Notes: generated from the sequence alone by a model not told the origin. 64,000 nucleotides of DNA from Candidatus Woesearchaeota archaeon (GCA_038874135.1 JAVZCZ010000001.1:480001-544000), one strand, 5' to 3'; shown: positions 2,103-24,473, counted from the stretch's first letter. Made by a program: numbers and translations.

Positions 2103-2130
2103 TTAAACCAGCCCTCCTCATTCAAAAAGT

Positions 2131-2370: not shown

Positions 2371-2371
2371 C

Positions 2372-2912: not shown

Positions 2913-3009
2913 TTTTTAGCAACCAAAGATTTAGCCAATCTTTTTAAAGCTTTCCAAGGGAAAGCCCCCCATACAAACTTTTATAAACGGTACTGATTCC
3001 CTTAAAAAC

Positions 3010-6366: not shown

Positions 6367-6439
6367 GATGAGTACTAAAATGGTTTCATTTATTAAGTTT
6401 GGGAAAGAGTTATAAAGCAGTTAAAAATTCTAAAGCTCC

Positions 6440-7159
6440 ATGACAGAGCTGATGTATCTCAAAGACTGCTACCTCAGAGAGTTTGAAGCAAGAGTCACTT
6501 TTATTCAAGGAAGAATTATTGAACTGGACCGGACGGCATTTTATCCTGAATCTGGCGGGCAGCCCTCCGACCGAGGCTTCCTAGAATTTAATGGAAAAAC
6601 CGCTGAAGTGGTTAATGTGCGAAAGGAAGGCGGCAGAGTGCTGCACGAGCTAGCTGCAGATGCTGAAGTTTTAGGCATCACTCTTGGCGGGGCAGTGAAG
6701 TGCATTGTTGACTGGAATAGAAGGTACCTATTCATGAGATACCATACTGCCTGCCACGTGCTCTCAGCAGTGATATGCAGAAATGAACAGGATGTTGAAA
6801 TCACGGGAAACCAGATTGGAGAGGAAAAAACCAGGATGGACTTCAGTCTGAAAAGCTTTGACAGGGAAAAACTTGCCAAATATGAAGAGGAAGCCAATGC
6901 TGAAATTCAGAAGGCTCTCCCCGTAAGAATTGAATTTTTAGAGAGGGAGGAAGCCTTTAAAATCCCGGGGCTGGTTAAGCTGAGAAAGCTGCTGCCAGAA
7001 TCTTTAAAAGTCATACGGATAGTTTCAATTGACGGCTTAGACCAGCAGGCTTGCGGCGGAACCCATGTGAAGAACACTTCTGAGATTGGAAAGATAAAAA
7101 TCATAGGAAGTGAGAACAAGGGAAAGGACAACAGGAGAATCTACTTCACCCTAAGCTGA
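6440..7159 (+). CDS. alanyl-tRNA editing protein AlaX-M
   Basis: FYPESGGQPSD, MRYHTACH and CGGTH zinc ligands; 239 aa free-standing. Confidence 0.92.
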   Translation: MTELMYLKDCYLREFEARVTFIQGRIIELDRTAFYPESGGQPSDRGFLEFNGKTAEVVNVRKEGGRVLHELAADAEVLGITLGGAVKCIVDWNRRYLFMRYHTACHVLSAVICRNEQDVEITGNQIGEEKTRMDFSLKSFDREKLAKYEEEANAEIQKALPVRIEFLEREEAFKIPGLVKLRKLLPESLKVIRIVSIDGLDQQACGGTHVKNTSEIGKIKIIGSENKGKDNRRIYFTLS

Positions 7160-7399
7160 ATCTTCCAAAGCCCTACTCTTCCTAACAGGCTCGTAATAAT
7201 CTATCTTTTTCTCCCTCTTAAGCTCTTCCATCCTGCTTATCAGCTTCTCTGAAGATTCTGCAAACCTGAGATGATAAACTCCAGTAGCGTACTTATAAAC
7301 TATCTCAATTCCGAACTGCGAGAGCTCTCTTAATAGCAAATCCTCATTAAAGCTCGTCCTAACAAAGAACTCGCCCTTAACCTCATCTTCTAGGGACAT
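7151..7399 (-). CDS. small protein resembling a subtilisin prodomain / I9-like inhibitor
   Basis: GEFFVR...FGIEIVYKYATGVYHLRF...IDYYEP pattern; ATG at 7399 with GGAGG upstream; overlaps the end of the S8 protease gene. Confidence 0.5.
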   Translation of the reverse strand: MSLEDEVKGEFFVRTSFNEDLLLRELSQFGIEIVYKYATGVYHLRFAESSEKLISRMEELKREKKIDYYEPVRKSRALEDSA

Positions 7400-8612
7400 T
7401 CCAATCCCTCCAGCAGGGTACACTGGCTTTTGAGCTCTGGCCGCTTAAAATTCTTGCGATTTTGGAATCATAATAGTTTGAGAGCAGAGCATCCGCCCTC
7501 ACAAGACCTGCTCCGAAAGCTTCCTGTGGGACGCCCTGTTGGGATATTGGCTGAGCAGTATCTGCCAGCCGCCTTTCAACAAGATTAACATCCATACCTA
7601 GTGAGAGCCCCAGAGCAATCGCGCCTGAAACGTGGGGAGCTGCCATTGAGGTGCCTGACAGCATCCTGTAAGAGCCGCCTGGATATGAAGAAACAATCTC
7701 AACTCCCGGCGCAGAGATGTCTACCAGATCATTTATGTTGCTGAAGTAGGCATGCCTGTTCATCCTATCTACTGCCGCTACGGATATGACTGGCTGAAAG
7801 GATGCTGGATAATCATATATTGGAGCCGCGTCGTTGCCAGCTGCAGCGCACATTATGAGGCCATGCTTGTGAGCGTAGTAGCAGAGCTCCTTAAAGGCTT
7901 CTGAATAGTCTGGTGCTCCGAGGCTCATATTCACAATTTGTAATCTCTTCTTCAATGCCCATTCGATTCCGAGCATCACAGTTGCCTCGCTACCAGAGCC
8001 GTCCTCATCCAGAACTCTTAAGGCGTATAGTCTAGCTCCTGGAGCGACTCCGCAGTTTCTTCCTGCAATAATGCCTGCAACATGGGTGCCGTGCCCGTTA
8101 AGATCCATAGGCTTTGAATTATTTAGGATGAAGTCAAAGCCCTTATCATCTGAAAACCTGGAGGATATTTCAGGATGAGAGTAGTCGCAGCCAGTGTCTA
8201 TCACGCCTACTGAAACTTCTGAGCCTGTTGAGAGCTTCCAAGCCTCATATGCTCCAATATTTTCAAGGTTCCAGAGCCTCTCGCCATGATCTAGAGAATA
8301 GTTTATGCCCTTCCTCATTGGAGGTATTGAAACCTTAGCAGAGGGCTCTATTGAGAGTATCTGCTCCAGAGCACTTCTCACCTCGCGACTTAGAAGCCAG
8401 GAGCGGCGTTCCTTATACTTTAAGCTTGCAAGCCGCTCAGCATCCTTAACGCTGCACTCTAAGGCAAGGTATGGAATCAGTTCAAAAGCCCTGCACCTGC
8501 CAAACCTTCTAAGCGTGTTATAAGCCTTCTCCTTATCCGAAACTTCTATTATTAGCTCTATGCCTCCTTTCGCATTTTTAAGCGTTGAAAAAATTTTATC
8601 AATTTCAGCCAT
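7383..8612 (-). CDS. S8 family (subtilisin-like) serine protease with no evident signal peptide
   Basis: Catalytic triad motifs VIDTG, HGTHVAG, GTSMAAPH; oxyanion AAGN. Confidence 0.95.
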   Translation of the reverse strand: MAEIDKIFSTLKNAKGGIELIIEVSDKEKAYNTLRRFGRCRAFELIPYLALECSVKDAERLASLKYKERRSWLLSREVRSALEQILSIEPSAKVSIPPMRKGINYSLDHGERLWNLENIGAYEAWKLSTGSEVSVGVIDTGCDYSHPEISSRFSDDKGFDFILNNSKPMDLNGHGTHVAGIIAGRNCGVAPGARLYALRVLDEDGSGSEATVMLGIEWALKKRLQIVNMSLGAPDYSEAFKELCYYAHKHGLIMCAAAGNDAAPIYDYPASFQPVISVAAVDRMNRHAYFSNINDLVDISAPGVEIVSSYPGGSYRMLSGTSMAAPHVSGAIALGLSLGMDVNLVERRLADTAQPISQQGVPQEAFGAGLVRADALLSNYYDSKIARILSGQSSKASVPCWRDWNVPRR

Positions 8613-8697
8613 GAGGAGAATTTTAATTTTAAGTTAAATAATGCTTATCACAAATTTCTCGGAAGTCCTTCGGAATTGGTCGCAAGAGTTTCAAGAC

Positions 8698-9933
8698 TCA
8701 TCTTAAGGATAAGATGAGGGAACGCACCTCTTCTCTGAGAATGCGCTCGTCATCCCTCCTGAGCTTAAGCTCAGCAGTAACAAATCCTGAATTCCCACCG
8801 CCCTTGCCAGAAAAGAGTGAGAATACTGTATTATTAAGAAATTCCAGTAGGTCTGAATCCAGATCTGAAGAGCGCATAAGGTAAATGTTCGCTTTCTCTT
8901 CACCCGTTCTGTTTATTAGCAAAACAAACGCCTGTTTTGAGCACAGGGCTGACATGCCTTTAACTATAACCTTCTGCTCCTCGCCCTCAAGAGTCTCAGA
9001 ATAGAAGCTTATGCCGAAAAGCCTCTCGGGAGTTATACTAGAAATCCTTCTCAGCAAATCCTGCTGGTGCCTCTCCTTCAACTCCCTATTCTCATTCCAA
9101 AGCTTAAGAGTGTCTTCAAATACAGAGTCACTCCTTCCTAAAAGCGCAGATATCCTTCTAAAATCCCTCGAATGCCTAAAAACCTCTCTAAAAGCATGCT
9201 CGGCAACTTTGAACTTTATCTCAAACTTTGAGCTTCCTAAACTTTTAAGAGAGGTTACCAGAACGAGCTTCAACTCAGAAGTATTCTCAACGTGGGTGCC
9301 CGTGCAGGCAGAAGCGTCAACCCCGACAATCTCAACCCTCCTAACAAATTCGTCCTTAATCCTGTCAGCCTTAATCCGCAAATCCGAATCAGAAAGAGCC
9401 TCCTGCGGTGCGAGGTAAGAAATCCTAAACGCCCGCCCCTCTTTTACTATAGAATTTGCAAGCTCCTCAGCCTCAAACATGAGATTCCAATTAAGAGAAG
9501 AAGCCCTAACAAAAAATGATGACTCCTCAGCACCTATTGAAACCTTATCAATTTCAACACTGAGAGAGTGTTCACCCATCACGCGTTTCAAACAGGCAAA
9601 TAGCAGATGCTCTCCAGAATGCATAAGCGTGTAAGCCCTCCTAAGCTGAGAATTCACCTCAAAAATAACCTTCTGCCCCTCAGAAATACTTCCCGAAAAC
9701 CTTGAACATCTGTGCATTATCAAACCGCCATCCTCAAAGGAGTCCTCAACCTCGGCATAAAAGCCATCTCCAGAGATTACTCCCCTATCAGAAGGCTGGC
9801 CTCCGGAAGCTGGCCTGAAAGGGCTCTTCTCAGCGCCTACTAATAAAAAGCTTCCCTCCCGCCTTACGGCCCTGACAGGCTCCGCTGATTTGAGAATTCC
9901 CGAATCGTAAAACTGGAATAGCTCCCGCCTCAT
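8698..9933 (-). CDS. AlaX-like editing protein with C-terminal DHHA1 (C-Ala-like) domain
   Basis: SGGQPSD, HSGEH, CTGTH, C-terminal GKGGG. Confidence 0.8.
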   Translation of the reverse strand: MRRELFQFYDSGILKSAEPVRAVRREGSFLLVGAEKSPFRPASGGQPSDRGVISGDGFYAEVEDSFEDGGLIMHRCSRFSGSISEGQKVIFEVNSQLRRAYTLMHSGEHLLFACLKRVMGEHSLSVEIDKVSIGAEESSFFVRASSLNWNLMFEAEELANSIVKEGRAFRISYLAPQEALSDSDLRIKADRIKDEFVRRVEIVGVDASACTGTHVENTSELKLVLVTSLKSLGSSKFEIKFKVAEHAFREVFRHSRDFRRISALLGRSDSVFEDTLKLWNENRELKERHQQDLLRRISSITPERLFGISFYSETLEGEEQKVIVKGMSALCSKQAFVLLINRTGEEKANIYLMRSSDLDSDLLEFLNNTVFSLFSGKGGGNSGFVTAELKLRRDDERILREEVRSLILSLR

Positions 9934-10014
9934 TACTCCCGCTTTGCCCGGAGGGTATAAAAAATTATCTGAAAATGTTTAAATACTAAACTCGCATTAA
10001 ATGCATCTTAGGGG

Positions 10015-10275
10015 GTGAACTATTTGGAAGAAGAAGTTGGAAGGATAACGCACTACTTCTCAAAGATAGGAGTTGCCGTTCTTAAGCTTTCAGGCAGCAT
10101 AAGGGTTGGAGACACTATAAGGATAAGGGGCCACTCCACAGACTTCAAGCAGAAGGTAAGCTCAATGCAGGTTGAGCACAAAAACATCCCTGAAGCAAAG
10201 TCTGGAGATGAAGTAGGGCTAAAAGTGGAATCGCAAGTCAGAGAGGGAGACCTAGTTTATCTTGTTAAGGAGTAG
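10015..10275 (+). CDS. small EF-Tu domain II-like beta-barrel protein
   Basis: VGRITHYFSKIGVAV..IRVGDTI..SMQVEH..AKSGDEVGLKV..VREGD. Confidence 0.8.
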   Translation: MNYLEEEVGRITHYFSKIGVAVLKLSGSIRVGDTIRIRGHSTDFKQKVSSMQVEHKNIPEAKSGDEVGLKVESQVREGDLVYLVKE

Positions 10276-11369
10276 AGGTTTTTCAGGCGCATCAGCGCCC
10301 TCCTCTTATCAAAATCTCCAACCTGAGCATCCCTTATGGCATCTCTCAACACGCTAACATTCTCATCCATAAGGGCAGTATCCACAGGGTATGGAATTCC
10401 GTCCTTGCCACCGTGCGCAAAGCTGAACCTGGCAGGATCATCCCAGGAAGCGCCGCACCCGTAGATGAGCTCAGAGATAAGTGCGAGAGCCCTCACTGCT
10501 TTAGCCCCAAACCCCCTAACTGAGATTAGCTCTTCATAAGTTTCCGGCTGAAGCTCGTAAGCTGCCTTGAGAGTTTCAAAGTCGCGCTTCCCCATCCTGG
10601 GAATAGTGTGCATCCGCGGCATGGATAAACTCTTAAACTGGGAATACTCCAAGAGCGAACGCTGCTCTGAACAGCACGAATTCAACATCCTGACAATCCT
10701 GCCAGGCCCGTCGCAAGCCAGGTCAACGCTGCACTTCCTAGCAGCCCTGCTTTCACGAGAAGTCATGTTCAGAACATCCTGCTTCAAGGTGTAGGAAAAG
10801 ATTGCGGAGTGCGGCTCCTCAACGAAGCTTTCAAAGCCTGAAAGCCAATGATACCTGCGGGCGTATTGTGAAGCCTGACTCATGCCCTGCTGCACGACAG
10901 CGTATGAGCCGTCCTCAGCCAGAAAGAAGGAGTGGTGATAAAGCTGGAATCCGTCCTGCACCAGAGCATTATCCACCTTGGCAATAAGCCTTGAAGCCCT
11001 CTGCAGCTCCTCAGCCCGAGAACTTCCCATACCGAAAGATTCAGAAGCTTCAATAATCTCAGAAGGAGTGCCTCTTGAAGCAGAACCCTTGCCTCCGAGC
11101 ACCAAAACTCCGTCCTCAGGCGTTAAAGCCTCCTTAAGAGCAGCGCACACAGTAGTAGTAAGCCCGGAAGAGTGCCAGTCAAATCCGAGAACGCTGCCCA
11201 GGCATTGGAAGAAGTAAGGATCAGAAATTCTCCTAAGAAATTCACTCCTGCCATACTCAAAGATGATGAATCTTGAAATCTCGCCTCCAAGCCGCACCAT
11301 CCTCGGAAAGAGCCATCTTGGACACCTTCCCGAGTGAAGCGGCAGCTCTGCACACCCCGTCCTATTCAT
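10257..11369 (-). CDS. DUF763 domain protein
   Basis: LPLHSGRCPRWL, DWHSSGLTT, ARRYHW, FAHGGKDGIPYPVD. Confidence 0.9.
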   Translation of the reverse strand: MNRTGCAELPLHSGRCPRWLFPRMVRLGGEISRFIIFEYGRSEFLRRISDPYFFQCLGSVLGFDWHSSGLTTTVCAALKEALTPEDGVLVLGGKGSASRGTPSEIIEASESFGMGSSRAEELQRASRLIAKVDNALVQDGFQLYHHSFFLAEDGSYAVVQQGMSQASQYARRYHWLSGFESFVEEPHSAIFSYTLKQDVLNMTSRESRAARKCSVDLACDGPGRIVRMLNSCCSEQRSLLEYSQFKSLSMPRMHTIPRMGKRDFETLKAAYELQPETYEELISVRGFGAKAVRALALISELIYGCGASWDDPARFSFAHGGKDGIPYPVDTALMDENVSVLRDAIRDAQVGDFDKRRALMRLKNLYSLTR

Positions 11370-11424
11370 AGAAAAAAAGATTTAATAAAATGAATTAAAA
11401 GGATTGCGCAGAGGTGTCCAATGC

Positions 11425-12069
11425 CTAAACCCCGCGCCTAGGACAGAGCCTTTTCAATATGCAGAGCTCGCACTTAGGCTTAAGAGCATTACACACCATC
11501 CTCCCGTGCGATATTAAAAGAAATGAAATGTTCCTCCACTCTCTCCTGGGAAGAAGCGTCATGAGATCCTGTTCTATAACCCTCGGATCACGACTTCTAG
11601 TAAAGCCAAGCCTGAATGAAAGCCTCCTAACATGAGTGTCAACAACTATGCCCTTAACAACTCCAAAGCCCTCAGAGAGCACAAGATTCGCAGTCTTCCT
11701 GGCAACACCTGGAAGGCTGAGAAGGTCATCCATACTAGCAGGAACCCTGGAATTAAACCTCTCCACTATAGCCCTAGAAGCCTCAACTATGCGCCTCGCC
11801 TTCAAGTGGTAAAAACCAGTGCTCCTAATAATCCCTTCTAGCTCCTTAACATCCGCCCTGGCAAAATCCTCAGGAGTTCTAAACCTCTTAAAGAGCACTG
11901 GCGTCACAGCATTAACCCTAGCGTCAGTACACTGCGCAGAAAGCATGGTAGCTATGAGAAGCTGAAAAGGGTTTGAAAACCTCAAAGCAGTTCCGGGAAT
12001 GCCATACTCCCGCTTGAGAATTCTCACAACCCTAATTGCACGATCCCTTTCAGAATGGTTCACACGCAT
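11425..12069 (-). CDS. nth: endonuclease III
   Basis: LSAQCTD, HhH LPGVARKTAN, VDTHVRR, C-X6-C-X2-C-X5-C Fe-S motif. Confidence 0.96.
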   Translation of the reverse strand: MRVNHSERDRAIRVVRILKREYGIPGTALRFSNPFQLLIATMLSAQCTDARVNAVTPVLFKRFRTPEDFARADVKELEGIIRSTGFYHLKARRIVEASRAIVERFNSRVPASMDDLLSLPGVARKTANLVLSEGFGVVKGIVVDTHVRRLSFRLGFTRSRDPRVIEQDLMTLLPRREWRNISFLLISHGRMVCNALKPKCELCILKRLCPRRGV

Positions 12070-12177
12070 AAGAAGACAAATGTTAAATCAAATTAAAAGC
12101 TTTACTCAAAATGCTAAAGCAAAACAAGTTTCAGCAAGATGTAAGCACAAAAATTCTTGCATATATCTTTAGAAAAA

Positions 12178-12216
12178 AATTTCCACTGGACTTGCGTTGT
12201 AGAAATATTTTTAAAT
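12178..12216. promoter_or_regulatory. cas12a upstream region: inverted repeat ATTTCCAC-N12-GTAGAAAT followed by TATA-like TTTTTAAAT
   Basis: Read directly; the TATA-like element lies about 30-40 bp before the start codons and the inverted-repeat arms resemble the CRISPR repeat stem. Confidence 0.45.
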
Positions 12217-12242
12217 GAAGAAAAAATTAAAGGAAATAGGGG

Positions 12243-15200
12243 GTGGGTTATATTATGATTGAATCAAGAACTTCAATCTGGGATGAGTGCACTGGGCTTT
12301 ACAAATTAAAGAAGACCTTAAGATTCAGGCTGAAACCGATTGGCAAAACAGAAGAGTTCATAATAGAAAGGAAGATTATAGAAAATGACGAAGAACTTGC
12401 CAGAGATTCTGAAAGAGCTAAAAAAATAATAGATGAATATTATAGAAATTTCATAGCAGACAGGTTAAGAAATACAAAAATTAGCCTAGATAGTCTAAAA
12501 GAGTATGAAAAAAAGTATTTAGAGTTGAAAAAAGACAAAAAGAATAAAAACGCAACAAAAGAGTTCTCTACAATTCAAAAAAACCTCATTAAAGAAGTTC
12601 ACGATAAGTTCTTTGAAGGTACACAAAAAAATGAATTATTTGAAGACGACTTAATTAAAAATAGACTTCCCAATTGGTTAGAAAAAGAAAAAAGAGAAGA
12701 AGACAGAAAATTGATAGAAAAATTCAATAAGTTTGTTACATATTTTCATCCATTTTTTGAAAAAAGAAAAAATGTATTCTCAAATGAGGAGAAATCCACC
12801 TCGCTATTTTACAGAATTGTTGGTGAAAATTTACCAAGATATATTGATAACATAAAAAAGTATGAGAAGATAAGTCAATATTCAGATTTTGATTGCAGCA
12901 CACTAGAGAAAGAATTCTATCATGAATTAGGGGAAAAAAAATTAGATGAATTTTTCAAACTTGAAAACTTTAATGAGTTCCTAAGCCAGGAAGGAATAGA
13001 CAGATTCAACCTCGTAATAGGTGGTAAGTCGTTAGAAGGTAATAAAAAAATTCAGGGGCTCAACGAGCTGATTAACCTGTACTCCCAAAAACAGCCTGAA
13101 GACAAAAAACGGGAAATAAAAAAACTTTTAATGGTGCCACTATACAAGCAAATTCTAGGAGAAAAAAATACATTCTCTTTTGCTGAAGCAAAAATAGAAG
13201 ACGATGTAGAAGTAGTATCTACACTTCATGAGTTCTACACAGGAATCTCAAATGAGTTTGAAATAATAAAAAACATTTTTGAAAATATACTACAATACGA
13301 CGCTAGTGGGATCTATTTAAAAAAATCCTCTCTGAGTTACATATCTAAGGAGATATATAATGAGTGGGATCTTATTAATAGAGGATTAGATGCGTACGCA
13401 CAAAAAGACTTAAAAACTAAAAAAGAAAGAGACGCTTGGCTTAAAAAGACGTATTTTTCTCTAGAAGAAATTAAACAGTCATTAAGCTGCCTAGACGAAG
13501 AAGGTAAGTATTGGCAAACCTTTTTTGAGTACTACGCTGGAAAAAATAGCATTATAACGAAGCTTATAGATCAAGTAAAAGAAAAATACTCTCAGCTTAG
13601 CGAATTAAAACCGACTAAAAACGAGAAAGCACTCACAAAAGAAGAGAACTACAAAGATGTAGAAAAGATAAAGGAATTTTTAGATGTAGCTATGCAGCTG
13701 TATAAGATAATAAAACCGTTCAACTTAAGAAATAAAGAAGAAAGCTCACCATTGGAGATTAACGCAGAGTTCTACAACAAATTTGAAGAAGCATACGAAC
13801 CTTTTGAAAAAATCGTAGGAGTATATAACAGAATAAGAAATTATGTGACACAAAAACCTTTCAGCACTGATAAAATAAAAATAACATTCAAAAAATCAAA
13901 ATTATTAAACGGTTGGGATGTTAACAAAGTAAAAGATTGTCGGGGAATAATATTGGAGAAGGAAGGAAAATACTTCTTAGGTATTATTGAAGATACGGAA
14001 GAATTCGATAGGATAAAAAAGAAGGAAGAAGTAAAAGGACCAGCATATAAACTTGTGGAGTACAAATTAATTCCTGAACCTGCAAAAGAATTGGCACATG
14101 TGTTTTTTTCAGAAAAATACAAAAAAATGTATCCAATTCCTAAAGAGATAGAAGAAATAAGAAAGTATGCTAGTTACAGCAAAAATGCGAAGCTGCAAGA
14201 TGGTTATGAGAAGAAGGAATTCAAAATTGAGGACTGCCATAAGATGATAAACTTTTACAAAGAGGGTATAAAAAAACATCCGGAATGGAACAAGAAGTTT
14301 AATTTTAAATTCAAAGAAACATCTGAGTACAAAGATATTAAAGAATTTTTCCAAGATGTTCATAACCAGGCGTATGAAATAGAGTATGAATACATACCTG
14401 AATCTGAAATAAATCAAATGGTAAATGATGGCAAGCTGTACCTATTCCAGCTGTGGAACAAAGATTTTTCACCCTACTCAAAAGGTAGGAAGAACCTGCA
14501 CACGCTCTACTGGCAGGCATTATTCAGTGAAGAAAACCTAAAGGATGTAAAATTCAAGTTAGACGGAGGCGCAGAAATTTTTTTCAGAAATAAATCCATA
14601 GAAAATCCCACAATTCACCGAGCAGGGGGACCTATTGAAAACAAGAATCCAATTAGAGAAAAAGAAAGAAGCATATTCAAATATGACATCATAAAGGACA
14701 GGAGGTATACGGAAAACCAGTTCTTTTTACATTGCCCAATAACACTAAATTTCAAATTAGAAGAATTAAAAAGAAAAGATCTAAACAAAAATATCAACGA
14801 GATTATAGAGAAAAATCACTCAAAGGTTAACATTCTAAGCATTGACCGCGGTGAGAGAAACCTGCTGTATTACACACTGCTCTCACCTGAAGGGAGGATA
14901 ATAGAACAAAAATCATTAAACATTTTATACGATGATATTAATAGAAAACACTCATACTGGGATAAGCTTGATGAACTTGAACAAGAAAGGAAACGAGCAA
15001 GAGTAAACTGGAGCAAAATAAAGAATATAAAAGAGATGAAAGAGGGTTACCTATCAAAGGCAGTTCACGATATCTGCAAAATGGCTGTGGAGCATAATGC
15101 AGTGATAGTTTTAGAAGACTTAAACACCGAATTCAAGCGCGGAAGATCAAAGATAGAAAAACAGGTATACCAGAAGTTTGAAAAGATGCTAATTAATAAG

Positions 15201-15995
15201 TTAAACTACCTCGTATTCAAAGACAGGGAAGAAACGCAAAAAGGCGGACTGTTAAATGCATATCAGCTAACCAGCCAATTTACATCATTTGAGGAAATAG
15301 GAAAACAAACGGGAATAATATTCTATGTAGATGCGGGCTACACTTCAGCCATATGTCCCAAAACAGGATTTGTAAATATGCTCCACCCAAAGTACACAAA
15401 CATAAAAGCTGCACAGGACTTTTTCAAAAGATTTAAGTCAATAAGATACAACAGTAAAGAGAAATACTTTGAATTCACTTTCAAGTATGCAGACTTCTTA
15501 GAAAAAGACTCTAAAAATGAATACAACCAGAAAGAATGGACTGTTTGCAGCTTTGGAACGAGATTTGTAATAAAGAAGAAAAACAATTTGATAACTGGAG
15601 AAACTGAAGAGGTGCATGTAACGGAAAAACTCAAGGACCTATTCAAAAAGGAAGGAATCACATACGAGGATGAAAGAAACCTTGTTAAAGAGATAATTAA
15701 AAGCGAGAATAAGACATTCTTTGAAGAATTGATCTACCTGTTAAGATTAGTTCTGCAAATGAGAAACTTTGACAGTCAAAAAAATGAAGATTTTATATTG
15801 TCCTGCGTGAGAGATGCTTCGGGAAACTTCTTTGACTCTAGAAGAGCAGATAAGGATGAACCTCAAAATGCAGACGCAAACGGAGCATTACATATAGGAC
15901 TAAAAGGAATTCTGACAATCAAAAAGATCATTAAAGGAGAAAAACCTCATGTAGATAGGGAAGAGTATCTAGAATATGTGATAGCGAGGCACTGA
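12243..15995 (+). CDS. cas12a: type V-A CRISPR effector Cas12a (Cpf1); start may be ATG 12255
   Basis: KTLRFRLKPIGKT, RNYVTQKP, GWDVNK, LYLFQLWNKDFS, NLHTLYW; RuvC-I SIDRGERNL, RuvC-II VLEDLN, RuvC-III NADANGA; Nuc LQMRN; 1250 aa. Confidence 0.98.
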   Translation: MGYIMIESRTSIWDECTGLYKLKKTLRFRLKPIGKTEEFIIERKIIENDEELARDSERAKKIIDEYYRNFIADRLRNTKISLDSLKEYEKKYLELKKDKKNKNATKEFSTIQKNLIKEVHDKFFEGTQKNELFEDDLIKNRLPNWLEKEKREEDRKLIEKFNKFVTYFHPFFEKRKNVFSNEEKSTSLFYRIVGENLPRYIDNIKKYEKISQYSDFDCSTLEKEFYHELGEKKLDEFFKLENFNEFLSQEGIDRFNLVIGGKSLEGNKKIQGLNELINLYSQKQPEDKKREIKKLLMVPLYKQILGEKNTFSFAEAKIEDDVEVVSTLHEFYTGISNEFEIIKNIFENILQYDASGIYLKKSSLSYISKEIYNEWDLINRGLDAYAQKDLKTKKERDAWLKKTYFSLEEIKQSLSCLDEEGKYWQTFFEYYAGKNSIITKLIDQVKEKYSQLSELKPTKNEKALTKEENYKDVEKIKEFLDVAMQLYKIIKPFNLRNKEESSPLEINAEFYNKFEEAYEPFEKIVGVYNRIRNYVTQKPFSTDKIKITFKKSKLLNGWDVNKVKDCRGIILEKEGKYFLGIIEDTEEFDRIKKKEEVKGPAYKLVEYKLIPEPAKELAHVFFSEKYKKMYPIPKEIEEIRKYASYSKNAKLQDGYEKKEFKIEDCHKMINFYKEGIKKHPEWNKKFNFKFKETSEYKDIKEFFQDVHNQAYEIEYEYIPESEINQMVNDGKLYLFQLWNKDFSPYSKGRKNLHTLYWQALFSEENLKDVKFKLDGGAEIFFRNKSIENPTIHRAGGPIENKNPIREKERSIFKYDIIKDRRYTENQFFLHCPITLNFKLEELKRKDLNKNINEIIEKNHSKVNILSIDRGERNLLYYTLLSPEGRIIEQKSLNILYDDINRKHSYWDKLDELEQERKRARVNWSKIKNIKEMKEGYLSKAVHDICKMAVEHNAVIVLEDLNTEFKRGRSKIEKQVYQKFEKMLINKLNYLVFKDREETQKGGLLNAYQLTSQFTSFEEIGKQTGIIFYVDAGYTSAICPKTGFVNMLHPKYTNIKAAQDFFKRFKSIRYNSKEKYFEFTFKYADFLEKDSKNEYNQKEWTVCSFGTRFVIKKKNNLITGETEEVHVTEKLKDLFKKEGITYEDERNLVKEIIKSENKTFFEELIYLLRLVLQMRNFDSQKNEDFILSCVRDASGNFFDSRRADKDEPQNADANGALHIGLKGILTIKKIIKGEKPHVDREEYLEYVIARH

Positions 15996-16000
15996 AAAAA

Positions 16001-16561
16001 TTGGAAGAAAATATAATCATATCAAACATAAACGACTTCATATTCTGTCCGAGAAGCATCTACTTTCACAATCTTTACAGCAATTATGATGAACACCTAT
16101 ATCATGAAAACCCGCAAGTGGAAGGAAGAATAGTTCACAATAGCATTGACAAAAAACAATACAGCACAAGGCGAGACGTTCTTCAAGGAGTTGAAGTTTA
16201 CAGCGAATCTTTGGGAGTGATAGGTAAAATAGACTTATTTGACAAAAAAGAAGGAGTTCTAACAGAGCGTAAGAAGAGAATAAGCAGGATTTACGAAGGC
16301 TATCTTCTCCAGATGTATGCACAGTACTTCTGCTTAACTGAAATGGGATTTGCAGTCAAAAAAATACGACTGTACTCAGTAATGGACAACAAGACATACG
16401 AGGTAAAAATTCCTGGAGATGAAGACCTACATAAGCTTATGGAATTGCTGAAAAGAATGAGAAGTTTCAGGCTGGAAGACAAATCTTTTTCTCAAAACTT
16501 AAAAAAATGTGAAAAATGCATATATCGCAATATGTGCGATTACTACGCAGATGATGAGTAA
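16001..16561 (+). CDS. cas4: type V-A (PREFRAN-type) Cas4
   Basis: NDFIFCPRSIYF, GKIDLF, ERKK, QMYAQ, C-terminal CEKCIYRNMC Fe-S ligands. Confidence 0.95.
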   Translation: MEENIIISNINDFIFCPRSIYFHNLYSNYDEHLYHENPQVEGRIVHNSIDKKQYSTRRDVLQGVEVYSESLGVIGKIDLFDKKEGVLTERKKRISRIYEGYLLQMYAQYFCLTEMGFAVKKIRLYSVMDNKTYEVKIPGDEDLHKLMELLKRMRSFRLEDKSFSQNLKKCEKCIYRNMCDYYADDE

Positions 16562-17525
16562 ACCCGACTTTATGGAAAAGCAGGTTCTGTTTTTAGAGAG
16601 TAGTGAAGCTAAAAAAATATCATTCAAAAATTCAAATCTTCAAGTTACAGATGAAAATGGAAGGATAATACTTCAAAACTCCTGCCACAAAATATTTTTA
16701 GTCTTTATCCGGGGAGAGTTCACTATAACTTCTGTGCTTCTTAAGAATGCAAAGAGGTTTGGATTTCCACTAGTTTTTCTGACTTACTCTCTAAGACCAT
16801 ATCTGGTTTACAATGCAGGCACTGAAGGTAACTTCCTTCTAAGAAGAGTGCAATATTCGTGCAACAGAAGTTTTGAAATTGCAAAACACATAGTCTACAA
16901 TAAAGTATTAAATCAAGTTCAACTGATGAAATCGCTGAGATATAAAACAAAAGAAGAAAAAAAGGCAATAGAGATTATTGAAAAATTGTTAACATCTATA
17001 AAAACAGCTAATGACGAACAAGAACTCCTGGGCATTGAAGGAGAATCCTCAAAGCTATTCTTCAGAACATACTTCAAAAACATTAACTTCAGCGGCAGAA
17101 AACCTCGGATAAAACCGGACATATACAACTGCCTATTAGACATAGGATACACCTACCTGTTTCAATTCATTGAAGCAAACCTGAGCCTATACGGATTTGA
17201 CCTATACTGCGGAGTATATCACAAGCAGTTCTATCAGCGAAAATCATTAGTGTGCGACATCATAGAGCCTTTCAGGTGCGTCATAGAAAAGAGAATTCGC
17301 ACAAGTTGCAATCTGAAACAAATTGATGAAAAAGATTTTGTAAGTATACAGGGAAGATACGAGCTAAAAAAAGAAGCAACACAAAAATACAGTGAAATAC
17401 TACTAAGAGCAATTCTAGAATACAAACAGGACATCTTCCTTTATGTAAGATCATACTACCGCGCATTCATAAAACAGAAGGAAATAGAGGCGTACCCAAT
17501 ATTTAGGATAGGTGAGGATAGATGA
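16551..17525 (+). CDS. cas1: type V-A (PREFRAN-type) Cas1; likely start ATG 16551
   Basis: LLGIEG, GRKPR, LDIGY, GVYH, SLVCDIIEPFR. Confidence 0.96.
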   Translation: MMSKPDFMEKQVLFLESSEAKKISFKNSNLQVTDENGRIILQNSCHKIFLVFIRGEFTITSVLLKNAKRFGFPLVFLTYSLRPYLVYNAGTEGNFLLRRVQYSCNRSFEIAKHIVYNKVLNQVQLMKSLRYKTKEEKKAIEIIEKLLTSIKTANDEQELLGIEGESSKLFFRTYFKNINFSGRKPRIKPDIYNCLLDIGYTYLFQFIEANLSLYGFDLYCGVYHKQFYQRKSLVCDIIEPFRCVIEKRIRTSCNLKQIDEKDFVSIQGRYELKKEATQKYSEILLRAILEYKQDIFLYVRSYYRAFIKQKEIEAYPIFRIGEDR

Positions 17526-17794
17526 TGATACTAGCATATGACATAAGAGAAGATGATTTGAGAAACAGGTTCAACAAATTTATCAGGCAGTATGGAAGAA
17601 GACTCCAGTTCTCAGTTTATGAAATAAGCAACAGCGAAAGGATACTAAGCATAGTTAAACTTGAGATAAGGGAAAGCTTTGAAAAAGAATTCCAGCAAAG
17701 CGACAGCGTACTAATATTTGAAGTGAATAATCCTGAAAAAGTAATAAGATTTGGATATGCAAAAAACGAGGAAGATGATCTGGTCTTCGGATAA
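17522..17794 (+). CDS. cas2: CRISPR-associated Cas2
   Basis: LAYDIRED, YGRRLQFSVYE, DSVLIF. Confidence 0.96.
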   Translation: MMILAYDIREDDLRNRFNKFIRQYGRRLQFSVYEISNSERILSIVKLEIRESFEKEFQQSDSVLIFEVNNPEKVIRFGYAKNEEDDLVFG

Positions 17795-18003
17795 AAAATG
17801 CAAACCTCAGTCTGAATGCAAAATTATAAAAAAAGAGTTTCTCTTCACAAAAAAGAGCAAGCTTTTTAAATAACAAAGTCACAACATCCTTTCGTTTCCT
17901 ATGCAAAAGAGATGTGTCGTAGAGTAACTTCTACGCCGAAAACCGCAAATTTTGTCGTATATCAACCCCCTAAAATTCATATTCCTACCCCTAAGTGGGA
18001 CCT
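17795..18003 (+). promoter_or_regulatory. CRISPR leader
   Basis: AT-rich non-coding 209 bp between cas2 and the first repeat; TATA-like TTTTTAAATA at about 17863-17872; the degenerate repeat is at the far end of the array. Confidence 0.75.
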
Positions 18004-18493
18004 GTCTAATAATTCGTAATAATTTCTACTGTTGTAGATTCTCAGTTTTCTCAGAATTATTTTCAACGTCGTCTAATAATTCGTAATAATTTCTACTGTT
18101 GTAGATTTTTTCAAAAAAAGTCTTTAATTTTGTAATTTGTCTAATAATTCGTAATAATTTCTACTGTTGTAGATCTCATAATATTTTTTTAGCCCAGCAT
18201 GTCTAATAATTCGTAATAATTTCTACTGTTGTAGATCGAAATCACTCTAATTGAGCCGAACGATGGTCTAATAATTCGTAATAATTTCTACTGTTGTAGA
18301 TGGCTATGTTTATAAATTCAAATCCTTCGTCTAATAATTCGTAATAATTTCTACTGTTGTAGATGTTTGCTTGTTCTAATATTTTTTTTGTTGTCTAATA
18401 ATTCGTAATAATTTCTACTGTTGTAGATACAAGGTATGATTCTACAGAATAAGTTTGGTCTAATAATTCGTAATAATTTCTACTGTTGTAGCT
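18004..18493 (+). CRISPR. type V-A CRISPR array: 8 x 36-nt repeat GTCTAATAATTCGTAATAATTTCTACTGTTGTAGAT, 7 spacers of 26-32 nt
   Basis: Repeats start at 18004, 18071, 18139, 18201, 18266, 18329, 18393 and 18458; canonical AATTTCTACTGTTGTAGAT 3' handle; last repeat ends GTAGCT. Confidence 0.99.
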
Positions 18494-18585
18494 TATTTTT
18501 CAATATTTTAGCCAATAATTGGAGTAGGTCTACTTTGCGGATTAGATTCAAAACCTTTATATTCCCCTTTTTTATTCTCCAAGTT

Positions 18586-21093
18586 ATGCTTTCGGATAAG
18601 GAGGTTAAAAGGGAGTTGAGAAGGGCTGCTTCTATGGAGCCTGAGAAGTATTATGCAGTTGATTTTCTGAAGGGTCAGGGCTTTTCTCGGCATCAGTGTT
18701 CCAGGTGTGGGAAGTTCTTTTGGAGTGTTGAGGATTCTGATGTCTGCGGAGATCCTGCCTGTTCGGGAGGTTTCAGGTTTATCGGGGATACTCCTGCCAA
18801 GAGGAGGTTGAGCTATGTTGAGGTCTGGGCTGAGTTTTCCAGGTTCTTTTCTGAGAGGGGGTATTCTCCTATTAAGAGGTATCCTGTGGCTGCTAGGTGG
18901 CGCGACGATACTGACTTCGTGCAGGCTTCCATTTATGACTTTCAGCCTTTCGTGGTTTCCGGCGAGGTTGAGCCTCCTGCCAACCCGCTTGTTGTTCCGC
19001 AGTTCTGCCTCCGCTTTAATGATGTGGATAATGTTGGCATAACTGGTGCTCACTATACAGGTTTTGTGATGATTGGCCAGCATGCTTTTACAAGTCCTGA
19101 GGGTTTTGATCAGGAGAGGTATTTTAGGGACATTTTTGAGTGGCTCACGCTCGGGCTTGGAATTCCTAAGGCTGAGTTGAAGTTTCACGAGGACGCTTGG
19201 GCTGGAGGCGGTAATGCCGGTCCCTGTATGGAGTACTTCTGCCGAGGGCTTGAGCTTGGCAATCAGGTTTACATGCGGTATCAGGTTACTGAGGGTGGTC
19301 TTAAGCCTTTGAGGCTTAATGTTCTTGACATGGGTATGGGGCATGAGAGGAATGCCTGGTTTACTAATGCTACGAGCACTAGTTATGAGGCTGTTTTTCC
19401 TGAGGTTATGAAGTATCTTTATGATAGGACCGGCTTTCGTACTGATCAGGCTCTTATGCGGAGGTTCCTACCGTATGCTTCATATCTTAATGCTGATGAG
19501 GTTGAGGATATTGAGGCGGTTTGGGCTGATATTGCAGATAAGCTCGGAGTTTCTAAGGATGAGTTGAAGAATAAGATCTCCAGGTCTGCTGCTCTGTATT
19601 CTATTGCTGAGCACGCGAGGAGTTTGCTATTTGCAATCTCTGACGGGGTTCTCCCCAGTAATGTTGCCGGCGGCTACAATCTTAGGATGCTTCTCAGGCG
19701 GGCTTTATCCCTTATTGAGAGGTACGGCTGGGATGTCTCCCTTGCTGAGGTTTGCAGGATTCATGCTGAGGAGCTTAAGCCTTTGTTCCCGGAGCTTTCG
19801 GAAGGGTTAGATGGTGTGGAGAAGATTCTGAATTATGAAAGGGAGAAGTATCTTGAGAGCAGGAGGAATGCTAAGCGCATTGTGGAAGGCTTGGCTTCTA
19901 AGAGGATTACTGCTGAGCTTCTCGTTCAGCTTTACGACAGTCACGGCATAAGTCCGGATTTTGTCAGGCAGGAGCTCGGAGCTAGGGGCATTAGTGTGGA
20001 CGTTCCTGAAAATTTTTACTCACTACTTTCAGAGAGGCACTCCGTGGGCGTTCAGAAAACTTCAACTAAGAAGGGCGTGCCTCTCGACCTGTCAGGGCTG
20101 CCGCAGACTGAGGCTTTATACTTTGGAGATTACACTCTAACTAAGTTCTCAGCAAGGGTGCTTAGGATTATTGATGGAAGGTATGTCGTGCTGGACAGGA
20201 CTGCTTTTTATCCCACATCTGGAGGGCAGCTGCACGATACCGGCACGCTGGGGAGTTCAAAAGTGTTGGAATGCTTTAAGGATGGGGGTATAATAGTGCA
20301 CCTTGTAGATTCTCCAAGATTTAGGGAAGGCGAATTGGTTGAAGGCGTTGTGGACTTTGAGAGGAGGCTTCAGCTGGCTCAGCATCATACATCTGCTCAC
20401 ATTGTAAATGCTGCTGCCAGGATCGTGCTTGGAAGGCACGTCTGGCAGGCTGGCGCTTCTAAGAGTTTGGAGCACGCTCGTCTGGACATAACCCATTACA
20501 AGCTGCTGGAAAGGCAGGAAGTTGCCAGGATTGAGGAGGAAGCTAACAGGATTGTGCAGGCTGATATTCCGGTGAGGAAGTTTTTCCTTCCAAGGGCTGA
20601 GGCTGAGCGGCGTTACGGATTCTCAATCTATCAGGGCGGCGCTGTTCCCGGCAGGGAGCTGAGGATTGTTGAGATTCCAGGTGTGGATGTGGAAGCGTGC
20701 GGGGGCACGCATCTTAACAGAACTGGAGAGGTTCGCAGCATAAGGATTCTGAGAACTTCAAAGGTTCAGGACGGCATAATAAGAATTGAGTTCGTTTCAG
20801 GAAGGGCTGCTGAAGTGCTCTCTTCTGAGGAGAACAGGATTATAAGTGAGCTCTCAGAAATTCTGAACTGCGAGAGGGAGCAGATTCCCGGAAGGGTTGG
20901 TGAGCTGTTTGACTGGTGGAAGAGGATTGTCAAGAAGGGTGAGGACAAGTTAAAGTTTAAGCTTTCTTCAGAGGAGAGGCTTAAAGCTTCTAATGCTCAG
21001 ATAATCTCGGCTGCTGCTGAGCGTTTGAAAACTCAGCCTGAGCACCTGGTGAAAACGGTTAAGAGGTTCTTAGAAGAGATTAAAAAATCTTAA
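18586..21093 (+). CDS. alaS: alanine--tRNA ligase (archaeal type)
   Basis: ARWRDD..ASIYDFQP, LRFNDVDNVG, DMGMGHER, editing HHTSAH and CGGTH; ATG 18586 preferred because the ORF-track start lies inside the array. Confidence 0.95.
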   Translation: MLSDKEVKRELRRAASMEPEKYYAVDFLKGQGFSRHQCSRCGKFFWSVEDSDVCGDPACSGGFRFIGDTPAKRRLSYVEVWAEFSRFFSERGYSPIKRYPVAARWRDDTDFVQASIYDFQPFVVSGEVEPPANPLVVPQFCLRFNDVDNVGITGAHYTGFVMIGQHAFTSPEGFDQERYFRDIFEWLTLGLGIPKAELKFHEDAWAGGGNAGPCMEYFCRGLELGNQVYMRYQVTEGGLKPLRLNVLDMGMGHERNAWFTNATSTSYEAVFPEVMKYLYDRTGFRTDQALMRRFLPYASYLNADEVEDIEAVWADIADKLGVSKDELKNKISRSAALYSIAEHARSLLFAISDGVLPSNVAGGYNLRMLLRRALSLIERYGWDVSLAEVCRIHAEELKPLFPELSEGLDGVEKILNYEREKYLESRRNAKRIVEGLASKRITAELLVQLYDSHGISPDFVRQELGARGISVDVPENFYSLLSERHSVGVQKTSTKKGVPLDLSGLPQTEALYFGDYTLTKFSARVLRIIDGRYVVLDRTAFYPTSGGQLHDTGTLGSSKVLECFKDGGIIVHLVDSPRFREGELVEGVVDFERRLQLAQHHTSAHIVNAAARIVLGRHVWQAGASKSLEHARLDITHYKLLERQEVARIEEEANRIVQADIPVRKFFLPRAEAERRYGFSIYQGGAVPGRELRIVEIPGVDVEACGGTHLNRTGEVRSIRILRTSKVQDGIIRIEFVSGRAAEVLSSEENRIISELSEILNCEREQIPGRVGELFDWWKRIVKKGEDKLKFKLSSEERLKASNAQIISAAAERLKTQPEHLVKTVKRFLEEIKKS

Positions 21094-21150
21094 TCTTGCA
21101 CTGGACATTTTCTGAAAACATTTAAATTTTGTTTGTGAAACATTTACTTT

Positions 21151-22434
21151 ATGAAGGTTCTCTGCCTTAAATGCAAGGGGCGCGGCTTCTGCGGCAGGGA
21201 GTACTGCCCCGTATATGCTAAGGCAAACTCTATGCTCAAGATAAAGAAGGTTCTGCTTTCAGGAATGAAGGAGGAGTTCTATTCAAAAGCCCCTTCCGTG
21301 CTTGTGGGCAGGAGCGGCTATCCTGATGTGAATGTCGGAATACTCGCACCCCCTGAAGTTCCTGAGCTTCTGGAGCAGGCTGAGCTTTATGATGCTCCCA
21401 GGCTGTGGAGCGGGATGAACTTCTCAGTTGGAAAGATAATTGAGCTTAGGTCTGGCCTTATTAATTCCAGAGCGAGGGCTAGAGTTAATAGTGCATCTTC
21501 CAGGAATTATAGCAGGCTTCTGGAGCTTGCTCAGGAGGTGAGCATGGCTTCTAAGCCCGTGGATGTTGAGATTTATGTTGAGGAGGTTCCCAGGTTCAGG
21601 GTGAACCTGAGCCCTGAGCTGGCTCCTTTTGGTCCTGAGGCGAAGCTTAAGAGCGCCGTGCTTGCTGAGAATCCCAGGGTTAGCCCTGCTGTTGAGAAGG
21701 CAGTTTCAGATTACGACTTGAAGGCGTCTGAGGCGATATCCACACTCTTTTCCAAGGGCTTTGATGAGAATGCTATAGTTAGGCTTTTGAGCACAGGCAC
21801 TCTGGGAGTTAGGAGTGAGAGAAAGCTTGTTCCTACGAGGTGGGCGATAACTGCTGTAGATGATGCTCTCGGCAGGGAGCTGACTGGAGAGGTTAAGCAG
21901 TTTAGCATTTCAGACCCTCTGGCTTTCTTCGGCGGATATCTGGGAAACTATTATCTAGTTCTGCTCTTTCCCGAAGTTTGGAGTTATGAGCTGTTTGAAA
22001 CCTACATGCCAAAGGCTGAGTGGAATCTGAGCAATGAGGTGCAATTCATGACTGACTACGAGCCGTATGAGGGGAGAAGCGCTTATGCTGAGGAGTGCTC
22101 AGGCGGTTATTATGCTGCAAGGCTGGCAATACTTGAAAGGCTTAAAGCTATGAGAAGGCAGGCGTCAGTGCTCGCAATAAGAGTAATTACTGGAGAGTAT
22201 TTCTGCCCGCTTGGAGTGTGGGTTGTGAGGGAGGCTTCTCGTAAGGCGATGTCTTCCAAGCCTTTGGAGTTTGGAGATTCTGCGCTTATGCTCAGGTATG
22301 CTGAAGTTTTTCTTAAGAAGAAGTTTGGACTTGATGCTCATTTAATATTTAAGAGGAGCAGGCTTCTCAGACGCCTCCTTGGACAGGCTAAGCTAACTCA
22401 GTTCTTCTCTTCAGGAGAAGCAAAAAGTATTTAA
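21151..22434 (+). CDS. Nre family DNA repair protein (NreA-like)
   Basis: N-terminal CLKCKGRGFCGREYCP, LVPTRWAITAVD, GGYYAARL, PLGVWVVRE, C-terminal PIP box QAKLTQFF. Confidence 0.9.
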   Translation: MKVLCLKCKGRGFCGREYCPVYAKANSMLKIKKVLLSGMKEEFYSKAPSVLVGRSGYPDVNVGILAPPEVPELLEQAELYDAPRLWSGMNFSVGKIIELRSGLINSRARARVNSASSRNYSRLLELAQEVSMASKPVDVEIYVEEVPRFRVNLSPELAPFGPEAKLKSAVLAENPRVSPAVEKAVSDYDLKASEAISTLFSKGFDENAIVRLLSTGTLGVRSERKLVPTRWAITAVDDALGRELTGEVKQFSISDPLAFFGGYLGNYYLVLLFPEVWSYELFETYMPKAEWNLSNEVQFMTDYEPYEGRSAYAEECSGGYYAARLAILERLKAMRRQASVLAIRVITGEYFCPLGVWVVREASRKAMSSKPLEFGDSALMLRYAEVFLKKKFGLDAHLIFKRSRLLRRLLGQAKLTQFFSSGEAKSI

Positions 22435-22459
22435 AGAGTTCCAGTTTGCGATATCTTAT

Positions 22460-22537
22460 AGCGGGGTAGAGCAGACAGGAGTGCTCGGCGGGCTCATAAC
22501 CCGCAGGTCGGCGGTTCAAATCCTCCCCCCGCTACCA
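22460..22537 (+). tRNA. initiator tRNA-Met (CAU)
   Basis: A1-U72, three consecutive G-C pairs in the anticodon stem GCGGG-CTCATAA-CCCGC, encoded CCA. Confidence 0.95.
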
Positions 22538-22608
22538 TTTTTTCATGTTTTTCTCACACTTCGGTTATATTTTTATATCTGTAAAGATAAGCTGGTTAAG
22601 GGGGTTTT

Positions 22609-23028
22609 ATGAAAAGGTTTGAATTCCTTCCAAAGACTGCTGATGTAAAGCTGAGGGCTTTCGGCAGAAGTTTTGAGGAAGCGTTAGAAAACGCTGCCCA
22701 GGCGATGACCTCTCTGATGGTAGAAGGCTCAGTGAAAGGAACAACTAAGCGGGAAATTGAAGTGGTTTCAGATTCTAGAGAGGAGTTGGCAGTGAAATTT
22801 TTAGAGGAGCTTCTCTTCTTAAGAGATTCTGAGGGCTTACTCCTCTCCAAGGTTGAAGGGATTAGGGTTAAGAGAGAGAAAATGCGATTCAAGCTTAATG
22901 CTGTCATAACTTTTGATTCAATAAGAAATTATGAGTATAGAGAGGTTGTTAAGGCGGTTACTTTCAACGAGCTTAGACTGTTTAGAAGTGGGAACAAAGT
23001 AGTCTTACAGGTTGTGCTGGACACTTGA
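22609..23028 (+). CDS. archease
   Basis: TADV...VKAVTF...VVLD; adjacent to rtcB. Confidence 0.92.
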   Translation: MKRFEFLPKTADVKLRAFGRSFEEALENAAQAMTSLMVEGSVKGTTKREIEVVSDSREELAVKFLEELLFLRDSEGLLLSKVEGIRVKREKMRFKLNAVITFDSIRNYEYREVVKAVTFNELRLFRSGNKVVLQVVLDT

Positions 23029-23042
23029 AGGAGGTGCTAAGG

Positions 23043-24464: not shown

Positions 24465-24473
24465 AAGTGCAAC

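Follow-up and report, generated by a model that had tools for sequence, protein, structure and literature searches.

A type V-A (Cas12a) CRISPR locus at a variable chromosomal site in a Woesearchaeota archaeon

The first Cpf1 survey, in 2015, reportedly included archaeal type V-A systems, with the Cas12a of Candidatus Methanoplasma termitum and Ca. Methanomethylophilus alvus as the precedents, the hosts in both cases being Methanomassiliicoccales and not DPANN. Cas12a genes have also been annotated already in DPANN metagenome-assembled genomes (MAGs), and their presence there is not new. In the 2025 CRISPR-Cas classification, archaeal class 2 systems are nevertheless few, apart from subtype II-D in DPANN (PMC12669027). 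Two further lines of work on V-A systems bear on the locus described here. Standalone repeat-like units (SRUs) precede cas12a in between a third and a half of V-A loci, in Francisella an SRU and a terminal repeat mark the scar of a lost locus (PMC10120712), and in Moraxella CreR mini-arrays repress cas12a (PMC10120712; 10.1101/2023.03.10.532045). Thermotolerant Cas12a proteins, sought for activity at 55–65 °C, have been assayed biochemically, these include CmeCas12a (1288 aa) and YmeCas12a (1362 aa, <27% identical to the Lb, As or Fn proteins) (PMC8986864), as well as CtCas12a (PMC10692460). Here we analyse a V-A locus in a 64,000-nucleotide (nt) stretch of the chromosome of a Candidatus Woesearchaeota archaeon (GCA_038874135.1, JAVZCZ010000001.1:480001-544000), which we refer to as the window and whose own numbering is used for all coordinates unless another sequence is named.

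With a probability of roughly 90%, we conclude that this is a genuine, complete V-A adaptive immune locus on a Woesearchaeota chromosome, gained horizontally, with other DPANN archaea as the probable donors, at a variable site that directly precedes the alaS promoter. All the hallmarks of V-A that could be checked were found, and we therefore assign the locus to this subtype. The locus is very probably functional, and by analogy with the family its Cas12a would be expected to process CRISPR RNA (crRNA) and cleave DNA.

The cassette and its chromosomal setting

The host is a tiny archaeon of the symbiotic type, and its genome is a single, closed contig of 909,956 bp (99.4% complete), of which the window covers positions 480,001–544,000. 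The best relatives of its alanyl-tRNA synthetase (AlaRS) are found in Candidatus Woesearchaeota and Nanoarchaeota MAGs (55–59% identity), so the initial annotation, made from the sequence alone, was correct in calling the host DPANN-like. The same annotation had placed cas12a-cas4-cas1-cas2, a leader and an eight-repeat array between nth and alaS, and both the coordinates and the content of this cassette hold. The four cas open reading frames (ORFs) lie on one strand (12243/12255–15995, 16001–16561, 16509/16551–17525 and 17522–17794), with neighbours separated by a 5-nt gap or sharing a short overlap. The features of the locus are as follows.

11425–12069, minus strand: nth (endonuclease III, HhH-GPD), the left host flank; Pfam HhH-GPD E 1.7e-25, orthologue adjacent to alaS in two genomes of the same family (G002 and G003)
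12178–12203, plus strand: SRU, a version of the crRNA handle that differs by one substitution and has 8 nt inserted in its loop; the cas12a ATG follows 50 nt downstream
12208–12216, plus strand: TATA-like TTTTTAAAT, a candidate cas12a promoter element read from the sequence
12239–12245, plus strand: Shine-Dalgarno-like GGGGGTG run, following TTTTTAAAT
12255–15995, plus strand: cas12a, 1246 aa from the ATG at 12255 (the ORF opens with GTG at 12243); five Cas12a Pfam domains, FnCas12a structures matched at E ~1e-279
13908–14099, plus strand: positions contacting the protospacer-adjacent motif (PAM), N556, K562, C566, E616, A618 and H619, from the FnCas12a alignment, numbered from the GTG at 12243
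16001–16561, plus strand: cas4, 186 aa, TTG start; Pfam Cas_Cas4
16551–17525, plus strand: cas1, 324 aa from the ATG at 16551; Pfam Cas_Cas1 E 4e-50
17522–17794, plus strand: cas2, 90 aa; Pfam CRISPR_Cas2
17795–18003, plus strand: leader, 209 nt, read from the sequence, with TTTTTAAATA at ~17864–17873
18004–18493, plus strand: CRISPR array of eight 36-nt repeats and seven spacers of 26–32 nt; the terminal repeat (18458–18493) is degenerate
18494–18546, no strand: right island junction; conserved host sequence resumes at 18547
18547–18575, plus strand: conserved alaS promoter region including TTTATAT, matched upstream of alaS in G001 (same genus), G002 and G003
18586–21093, plus strand: alaS, 835 aa, the right host flank; Pfam tRNA-synt_2c

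The most likely start of alaS is the ATG at 18586, the alternative at 18436 falling within the array, and the 835-aa form is the one called in other assemblies. The island was also said to be more AT-rich than both flanks, and this is borne out by a GC content of 33.0%, against ~47% in the flanks and 40.8% in the genome (z = −2.45 relative to all 6.25-kb windows of the genome). In 500-nt windows, GC stands at 27–38% over the block, compared with 47–52% in the adjoining sequence, and is back to 47% after it.

The effector is recognisable from end to end. Its REC1, REC2, PI, RuvC and NUC domains are all present (E 1e-19 to 6e-83; PF18501, PF21918, PF22222, PF18516 and PF18510 all exceed their cut-offs), and it aligns over its full length with solved structures, best with the synthetic ancestral ReChb (1055 bits, 44% identity) and then with FnCas12a. 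In the latter alignment (FnCas12a in its native numbering) the RuvC residues D868, E958 and D1211 correspond to D917, E1006 and D1255, the Nuc arginine R1174 to R1218, and the pre-crRNA-processing residues H792, K801 and K818 to H843, K852 and K869. All of these are identities, in keeping with the earlier description of the RuvC, Nuc and processing residues as intact. None of the 121 sequences compared (the window protein and 120 homologues) deviates at the RuvC and Nuc residues, the processing residues are conserved among the homologues, and the 1246-aa form is the one used by gene callers in other assemblies. In the mechanism that we propose, transcription of the array would start from the leader and Cas12a itself would cut the pre-crRNA via H792, K801 and K818, leaving a 19-nt handle, AAUUUCUACUGUUGUAGAU, attached to a spacer. 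The complex would then find PAM-flanked DNA, to be cleaved by the single RuvC site (D868, E958, D1211) with the aid of R1174, whilst Cas4, Cas1 and Cas2 would add new spacers at the leader end.

The adaptation genes and the array carry the same marks of integrity. Cas4 shares 58–59% identity with the Cas4 of the two nearest loci and conserves four cysteines and the D..ExK motif. Cas1 is 58% identical to that of the nearest loci, with which its start aligns, and gene callers in other assemblies likewise give it 324 aa. Relative to these loci, Cas1 and Cas4 retain the catalytic and Fe-S residues. As first described, repeats 1–7 are identical; repeat 8 is degenerate in its last three bases, ending GCT instead of GAT. 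All seven spacers are unique, and the array is the only one in the genome with such a repeat. The repeat folds into a canonical stem of 5 bp with a 4-nt loop (−4.8 kcal/mol), and its last 19 nt, the handle given above, equal a Cas12a crRNA scaffold that appears in 48 publications, of which one deals with FnCas12a. No anti-repeat was found in the intergenic parts of the locus, hence there is no sign of a trans-activating CRISPR RNA (tracrRNA). The best complement to the repeat (16 of 21 nt, 76%) lies at 15447–15467, inside the cas12a coding sequence, and is probably a chance match in AT-rich coding sequence, not an anti-repeat.

TATA-like boxes precede cas12a (12208–12216) and alaS, and a TTTTTAAAT-type motif also occurs in the leader (~17864), and the cas genes would be expected to be driven by archaeal TATA-like promoters. 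The genome holds 97 copies of the TTTTTAAAT motif; the box at 12208 is consistent with a promoter. The leader also contains a palindrome at 17926–17943 (CGTAGA-GTAACT-TCTACG), which echoes the GTAGA and TCTAC arms of the repeat stem in reversed order.

Amongst 5.8 billion clustered proteins, the best match to the window Cas12a was a Candidatus Ainarchaeum protein sharing 47% identity (48% over aligned columns). As its nearest homologue is this distant, the protein is, on sequence grounds, an uncharacterised orthologue in a DPANN-rich clade and not a known enzyme, which agrees with the initial suggestion of a new orthologue; near-identity to a characterised Cas12a, which would have spoken against that suggestion, was found nowhere. 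The sequence is already publicly available as part of several MAG assemblies, and no paper was found that mentions the MAG assembly or run accessions carrying it. The gene order (cas12a-cas4-cas1-cas2-array) and the handle are shared with the nearest loci. Elsewhere in the host's taxonomic order, two genomes contain Cas12a-like frames of 1537–1557 aa (G321:C1:713911-715464 and G160:C1:646874-648178), whose RuvC/Nuc halves are 42–49% identical to the window protein and which may be enlarged variants.

Several observations concern the surroundings of the cassette. The stretch of lowest GC in the genome lies outside the window at ~265–300 kb (G000:C1; 29–32% over ~30 kb), is far larger than the island, and probably represents another block of foreign DNA. 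We considered and rejected a replication origin at the island (492 kb), as the genome-wide cumulative GC skew reaches its minimum at 93 kb and its maximum at 602 kb; the local change in the sign of GC skew (window positions 6000–25000) coincides with divergent gene orientation and is a local dip only. Within 10 kb of alaS there are two extra genes for AlaRS-type editing domains (6440–7159 and 8698–9933; the C-terminal part of tRNA-synt_2c plus tRNA_SAD, AlaX-like).

Acquisition upstream of alaS and variation between strains

Comparison with relatives shows that the site is variable. In G002 and G003, both of the same family, the gap between nth and alaS is about 1.2 kb and holds genes for a DUF7670 protein and a nucleotidyltransferase, with no cas genes, and a search of these two nth-alaS sites for cas genes, repeats or SRU remnants found none. 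The 29 nt at 18547–18575 match G001 at 27 of 29 positions and share an exact 18-nt core with G003 and a 16-nt core with G002, in each case immediately upstream of alaS, and the right edge of the island accordingly falls within 18494–18546. G001, from the same genus, has another type V locus next to the alaS promoter on the opposite strand (locus L084, G001:C33:1-6600; 162–3815, minus), ending 140 nt from the alaS start. Its effector has 619 aa with Cas12f TNB and RuvC domains, its matches in the PDB are all weak (TnpB-like transposases, Cas12f and Cas14a.1), and it is accompanied by cas4, cas2 and cas1. The Cas1 and Cas4 of G001 share only 31% and 20% identity with those of the window, which implies that the two loci were acquired independently. 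The contig stops just past the effector, so the array there was not assembled, and since nth in G001 lies on a separate contig, next to 3.7 kb of different genes without an array, this hotspot is shared for certain on its alaS side only.

The distribution of Cas12a is similarly patchy: of the 400 other genomes sampled across the order, nine encode it, and for the same family the count is zero of three. In a FastTree phylogeny of 59 sequences, the window Cas12a falls in a clade of 33 rows (support 98) holding seven of the eight rows labelled archaeal, the window included; these comprise Woesearchaeota, Ainarchaeum, the two genomes from the same order and two loci set among archaeal genes. All named bacterial sequences, together with one Diapherotrites sequence, are on the opposite side of the split. 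Because the clade is rich in archaea, the donor was probably another DPANN archaeon. The proposal of horizontal acquisition in the initial annotation is therefore supported from four sides: the AT-rich island, the cas-free site in G002 and G003, the other type V locus in G001, and the patchiness across the order. A closed DPANN genome here documents a V-A system gained at a specific chromosomal site, where a sister species has put a Cas12f/Cas14-type system, and places Cas12a in about 2% of the sampled genomes of one DPANN order.

Strains carrying an identical Cas12a fall into two array haplotypes: A, with 7 spacers, in the window and GCA_038873495.1, and B, with 17, in GCA_038871545.1, GCA_038872315.1 and, over the part covered, GCA_038881075.1. 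The haplotypes have no spacer in common, trailer end included, yet the leader is 100% identical between strains with different arrays and their terminal degenerate repeats are homologous. The window and a haplotype-B contig show 0 differences in 6,125 bp, a stretch that begins at the end of nth and takes in the intergenic sequence, cas genes and leader, whilst their flanks show 20 in the ~8.9 kb compared (6 in ~5.8 kb on the left, 14 in ~2.1 kb of alaS). Had the island diverged at the average rate of its flanks, it would carry ~14 differences. In a comparison of 11879–19082 with loci L108 and L109, the cas cassette, the leader and 589 nt past the array were all free of differences. The unbroken identity of the island suggests recent recombination or a sweep among strains, and the simplest reading is that the cas cassette was recently common to, or swept through, co-existing strains while their arrays turned over. 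Spacer replacement is the best evidence available that the system is in use, and the earlier impression of an apparently active system gains support from this complete turnover between strains, which does not in itself prove interference.

The spacers were searched against several collections. No protospacer was found in IMG/VR for the 22 PAM-proximal nt of each of the seven window spacers or of haplotype B's newest spacer, in metagenome contigs for spacer 4 plus a full repeat, or in the window genome for all 24 spacers at up to 4 mismatches. In the 400 genomes of the order, both arrays gave only repeat-to-repeat matches with other V-A arrays, and against GenBank phages the array gave only chance or repeat-like matches. 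Amongst the latter, 40 nt of the Morganella phage vB_Mm5 (PP397179.1, 150766–150805), inside a hypothetical gene, match the window repeat at ~92% (E 1e-3), which could be chance or a phage-borne solitary repeat.

The SRU at 12178–12203 lies in array orientation directly before the TTTTTAAAT box, and nothing else outside the array matches a strict handle pattern anywhere in the genome of 0.91 Mb (0.05 matches expected, for a pattern chosen post hoc). Its stem has a C-A mismatch and its loop is 8 nt larger; the minus strand forms a better hairpin (−6.5 kcal/mol, G-U replacing C-A), followed by a U run pointing to nth. The sequence after the SRU is the TATA-like box, whose only similarity elsewhere is the TTTTTAAAT-type motif in the leader, with a mismatched seed (judged by eye). 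No counterpart was found within 600 nt upstream of cas12a in four related loci (L085, L087, L010 and L011), and the SRU is identical in strains of the same species, which is uninformative on its conservation. The direct orientation of the SRU and the terminal repeat fits gain or loss of the cassette by recombination, and more weakly the SRU may have a regulatory or recombination role.

PAM pocket, thermal signal and alternative readings

The canonical V-A PAM is a 5′ T-rich TTTV, read by lysines of the WED and PI domains. The WED lysine is kept in the window protein (K562, aligned with Fn K613), whilst the PI helix reads KELAH against KMLPK in FnCas12a, so that Fn K671 (As K607, Lb K595) is replaced by His619. 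Of the 121 homologues, 106 have Lys in this column, 9 Arg, 3 His and 3 Asn. Three neighbouring residues occur in the window protein only (1 of 121 each): Glu616, where 102 have Met; Ala618, where 113 have Pro; and Cys566, at the position of Fn N617 and As N552, where 107 have Asn. We take these pocket positions to be equivalent to the residues mutated in the engineered RR and RVR PAM variants. The KELAH helix and Cys566 together make a changed PAM a reasonable supposition, if a weaker one than those above, and the enzyme may thus recognise a PAM other than TTTV.

The thermal evidence is mixed, though better than the weak grade that the initial annotation gave to its own sign of thermotolerance, E/K/R-rich host proteins. 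Over 536 long ORFs, the host proteome has an IVYWREL fraction of 0.415, equivalent to ~54 °C by the Zeldovich relation, and the tRNA GC content is 62%. The GC content of the 16S rRNA (54.2%) and the charged-minus-polar bias (4.6) look mesophilic against the usual reference ranges. The window AlaRS has the highest IVYWREL fraction of 15 orthologues (0.448, others 0.385–0.416), and Cas12a (0.431) likewise tops its 121 homologues (mean 0.382, sd 0.014, maximum 0.419). In Cas12a the excess is driven by glutamate (11.9% vs. 8.3% in homologues), with fewer Asp, Asn and Ser, and because its FYMINK fraction equals the homologue mean, AT-rich codons do not explain it. From composition, moderate thermophily of the host is plausible and hyperthermophily unlikely, and more weakly the Cas12a may be moderately thermostable.

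Taken to its furthest extent, this would make the protein a naturally re-targeted and heat-adapted archaeal Cas12a, with a non-TTTV PAM and activity at ~50–60 °C, carried in a cassette bracketed by the SRU and terminal repeat and swapped among strains and sister species at an alaS-upstream defence hotspot; we regard this combination as doubtful. The standard Fn-type handle, the remodelled pocket and the thermophile-like composition would make the enzyme a candidate for a PAM-expanded Cas12a tool, or for one compatible with loop-mediated isothermal amplification (LAMP).

The alternatives to a horizontally gained resident locus differ in how they account for the island edges and for the relatives. 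Erroneous insertion of a foreign contig into the archaeal chromosome during assembly or binning, with joins at 12.1 kb and 18.5 kb, would produce the sharp GC drop at both edges, and CRISPR arrays often break or mis-join assemblies. We find an artefact scarcely credible, however, as the window genome is one contig and the identical 1246-aa Cas12a occurs on nine contigs drawn from four further NCBI assemblies and one Logan assembly of a Sequence Read Archive run, with nth and a DUF763 gene at its left in all contigs shown. Further, the cas2-array-alaS side is bridged in three NCBI assemblies, two of them with a different array length. With the same protein and both junctions present in four or more further assemblies, the locus is not a chimera, and the concern over chimeric edges raised with the initial annotation falls away. 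That the island is the cargo of an integrated transposon, provirus or plasmid is very unlikely: its foreign GC and sharp edges would suit such an element, but the 6.4 kb contain no integrase, transposase or tRNA gene, terminal inverted repeats or a target-site duplication were not found at the edges, and the sole edge-to-edge similarity is that between the SRU and the terminal repeat. An old locus, inherited vertically and lost from the relatives sampled, is somewhat less remote but still improbable. Resident cas loci are often low in GC, a DPANN-rich Cas12a clade does exist, and the family is represented by only three other genomes. Against vertical inheritance, the same-genus G001 has a non-homologous type V system at alaS with the divergent Cas1 and Cas4 described above, the site is occupied by other small genes in G002 and G003, identity to the nearest Cas12a is 47% where that to the AlaRS of the same-genus genome reaches 72%, and the island shows no difference over 6.1 kb between strains while the flanks differ.

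Four points weigh against our preferred reading of a functional V-A locus gained from other DPANN archaea. The phylogeny is from FastTree only, is unrooted and has mostly unnamed tips, and the window sits on a long branch (0.81). The full replacement of the array could come from recombination between strains and not from fresh acquisition, none of the 24 spacers had a protospacer in the searches run, and the pocket is possibly so atypical, by its residues, that canonical target recognition has been lost. The absence of protospacers, together with the repeat-like unit at the cas12a promoter and the four PAM-contacting positions that are unique or nearly so among 121 homologues, would also suit an effector which is intact in sequence and has no canonical PAM-dependent DNA interference, its pocket having decayed or its role having switched, for example to self-regulation. 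We consider this improbable, if the least so of the alternatives weighed here: no nuclease or RNase residue has been lost, strains share the same uninterrupted frame, the repeats stay identical in arrays that are otherwise diverse, and Arg, His or Asn occur at the PAM-lysine column in other natural homologues. A complete V-A immune locus, horizontally gained, thus remains our reading of the window.

Comparison with described systems

The type V-F Cas14/Cas12f loci of DPANN (PDB 7C7L, 7L48) are represented in this comparison by G001, which has one at the alaS-upstream position. They differ from the window locus in effector family and adaptation module, and in G001 also in strand, and no such system is present in the window. 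The thermotolerant CmeCas12a, YmeCas12a and CtCas12a bear on the window protein through its thermophile-like composition, a signal read from sequence where theirs is a tolerance assayed biochemically; they are different proteins, no database protein beyond the window's own strains being >47–48% identical to it.

The SRUs and CreR mini-arrays are matched in the window by a repeat-like sequence in array orientation just upstream of cas12a, beside a putative promoter, and as in the Francisella remnant (PMC10120712) an SRU and a terminal degenerate repeat bracket the cassette. Unlike the mini-arrays, the window SRU has the C-A mismatch and the larger loop, and no PAM-flanked promoter target was found for its spacer-like part.

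The Cas12a proteins of DPANN MAGs (Candidatus Ainarchaeum sp., Woesearchaeota and Diapherotrites; P0004, P0007, P0060) and of the nine same-order genomes belong to the same clade, except for Diapherotrites, and resemble the window in locus architecture, small-genome archaeal hosts and handle-type repeats. They share only 44–48% identity with the window protein, which is long-branched and has PAM-pocket residues of its own, where most relatives keep LPK or LPR. Of the characterised enzymes, FnCas12a of Francisella novicida U112 (PDB 5MGA, 5NG6, 8Y0B) is alike in domain order and in catalytic and RNase residues, and the U112 V-A locus has the 36-nt repeat, the identical 19-nt handle and the order cas12a-cas4-cas1-cas2-array. 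The window locus differs from it in its archaeal host, in the length of its Cas12a (1246 vs. 1300 aa) and much higher Glu content, and in the replacement of M668, P670, K671 and N617 by E, A, H and C.

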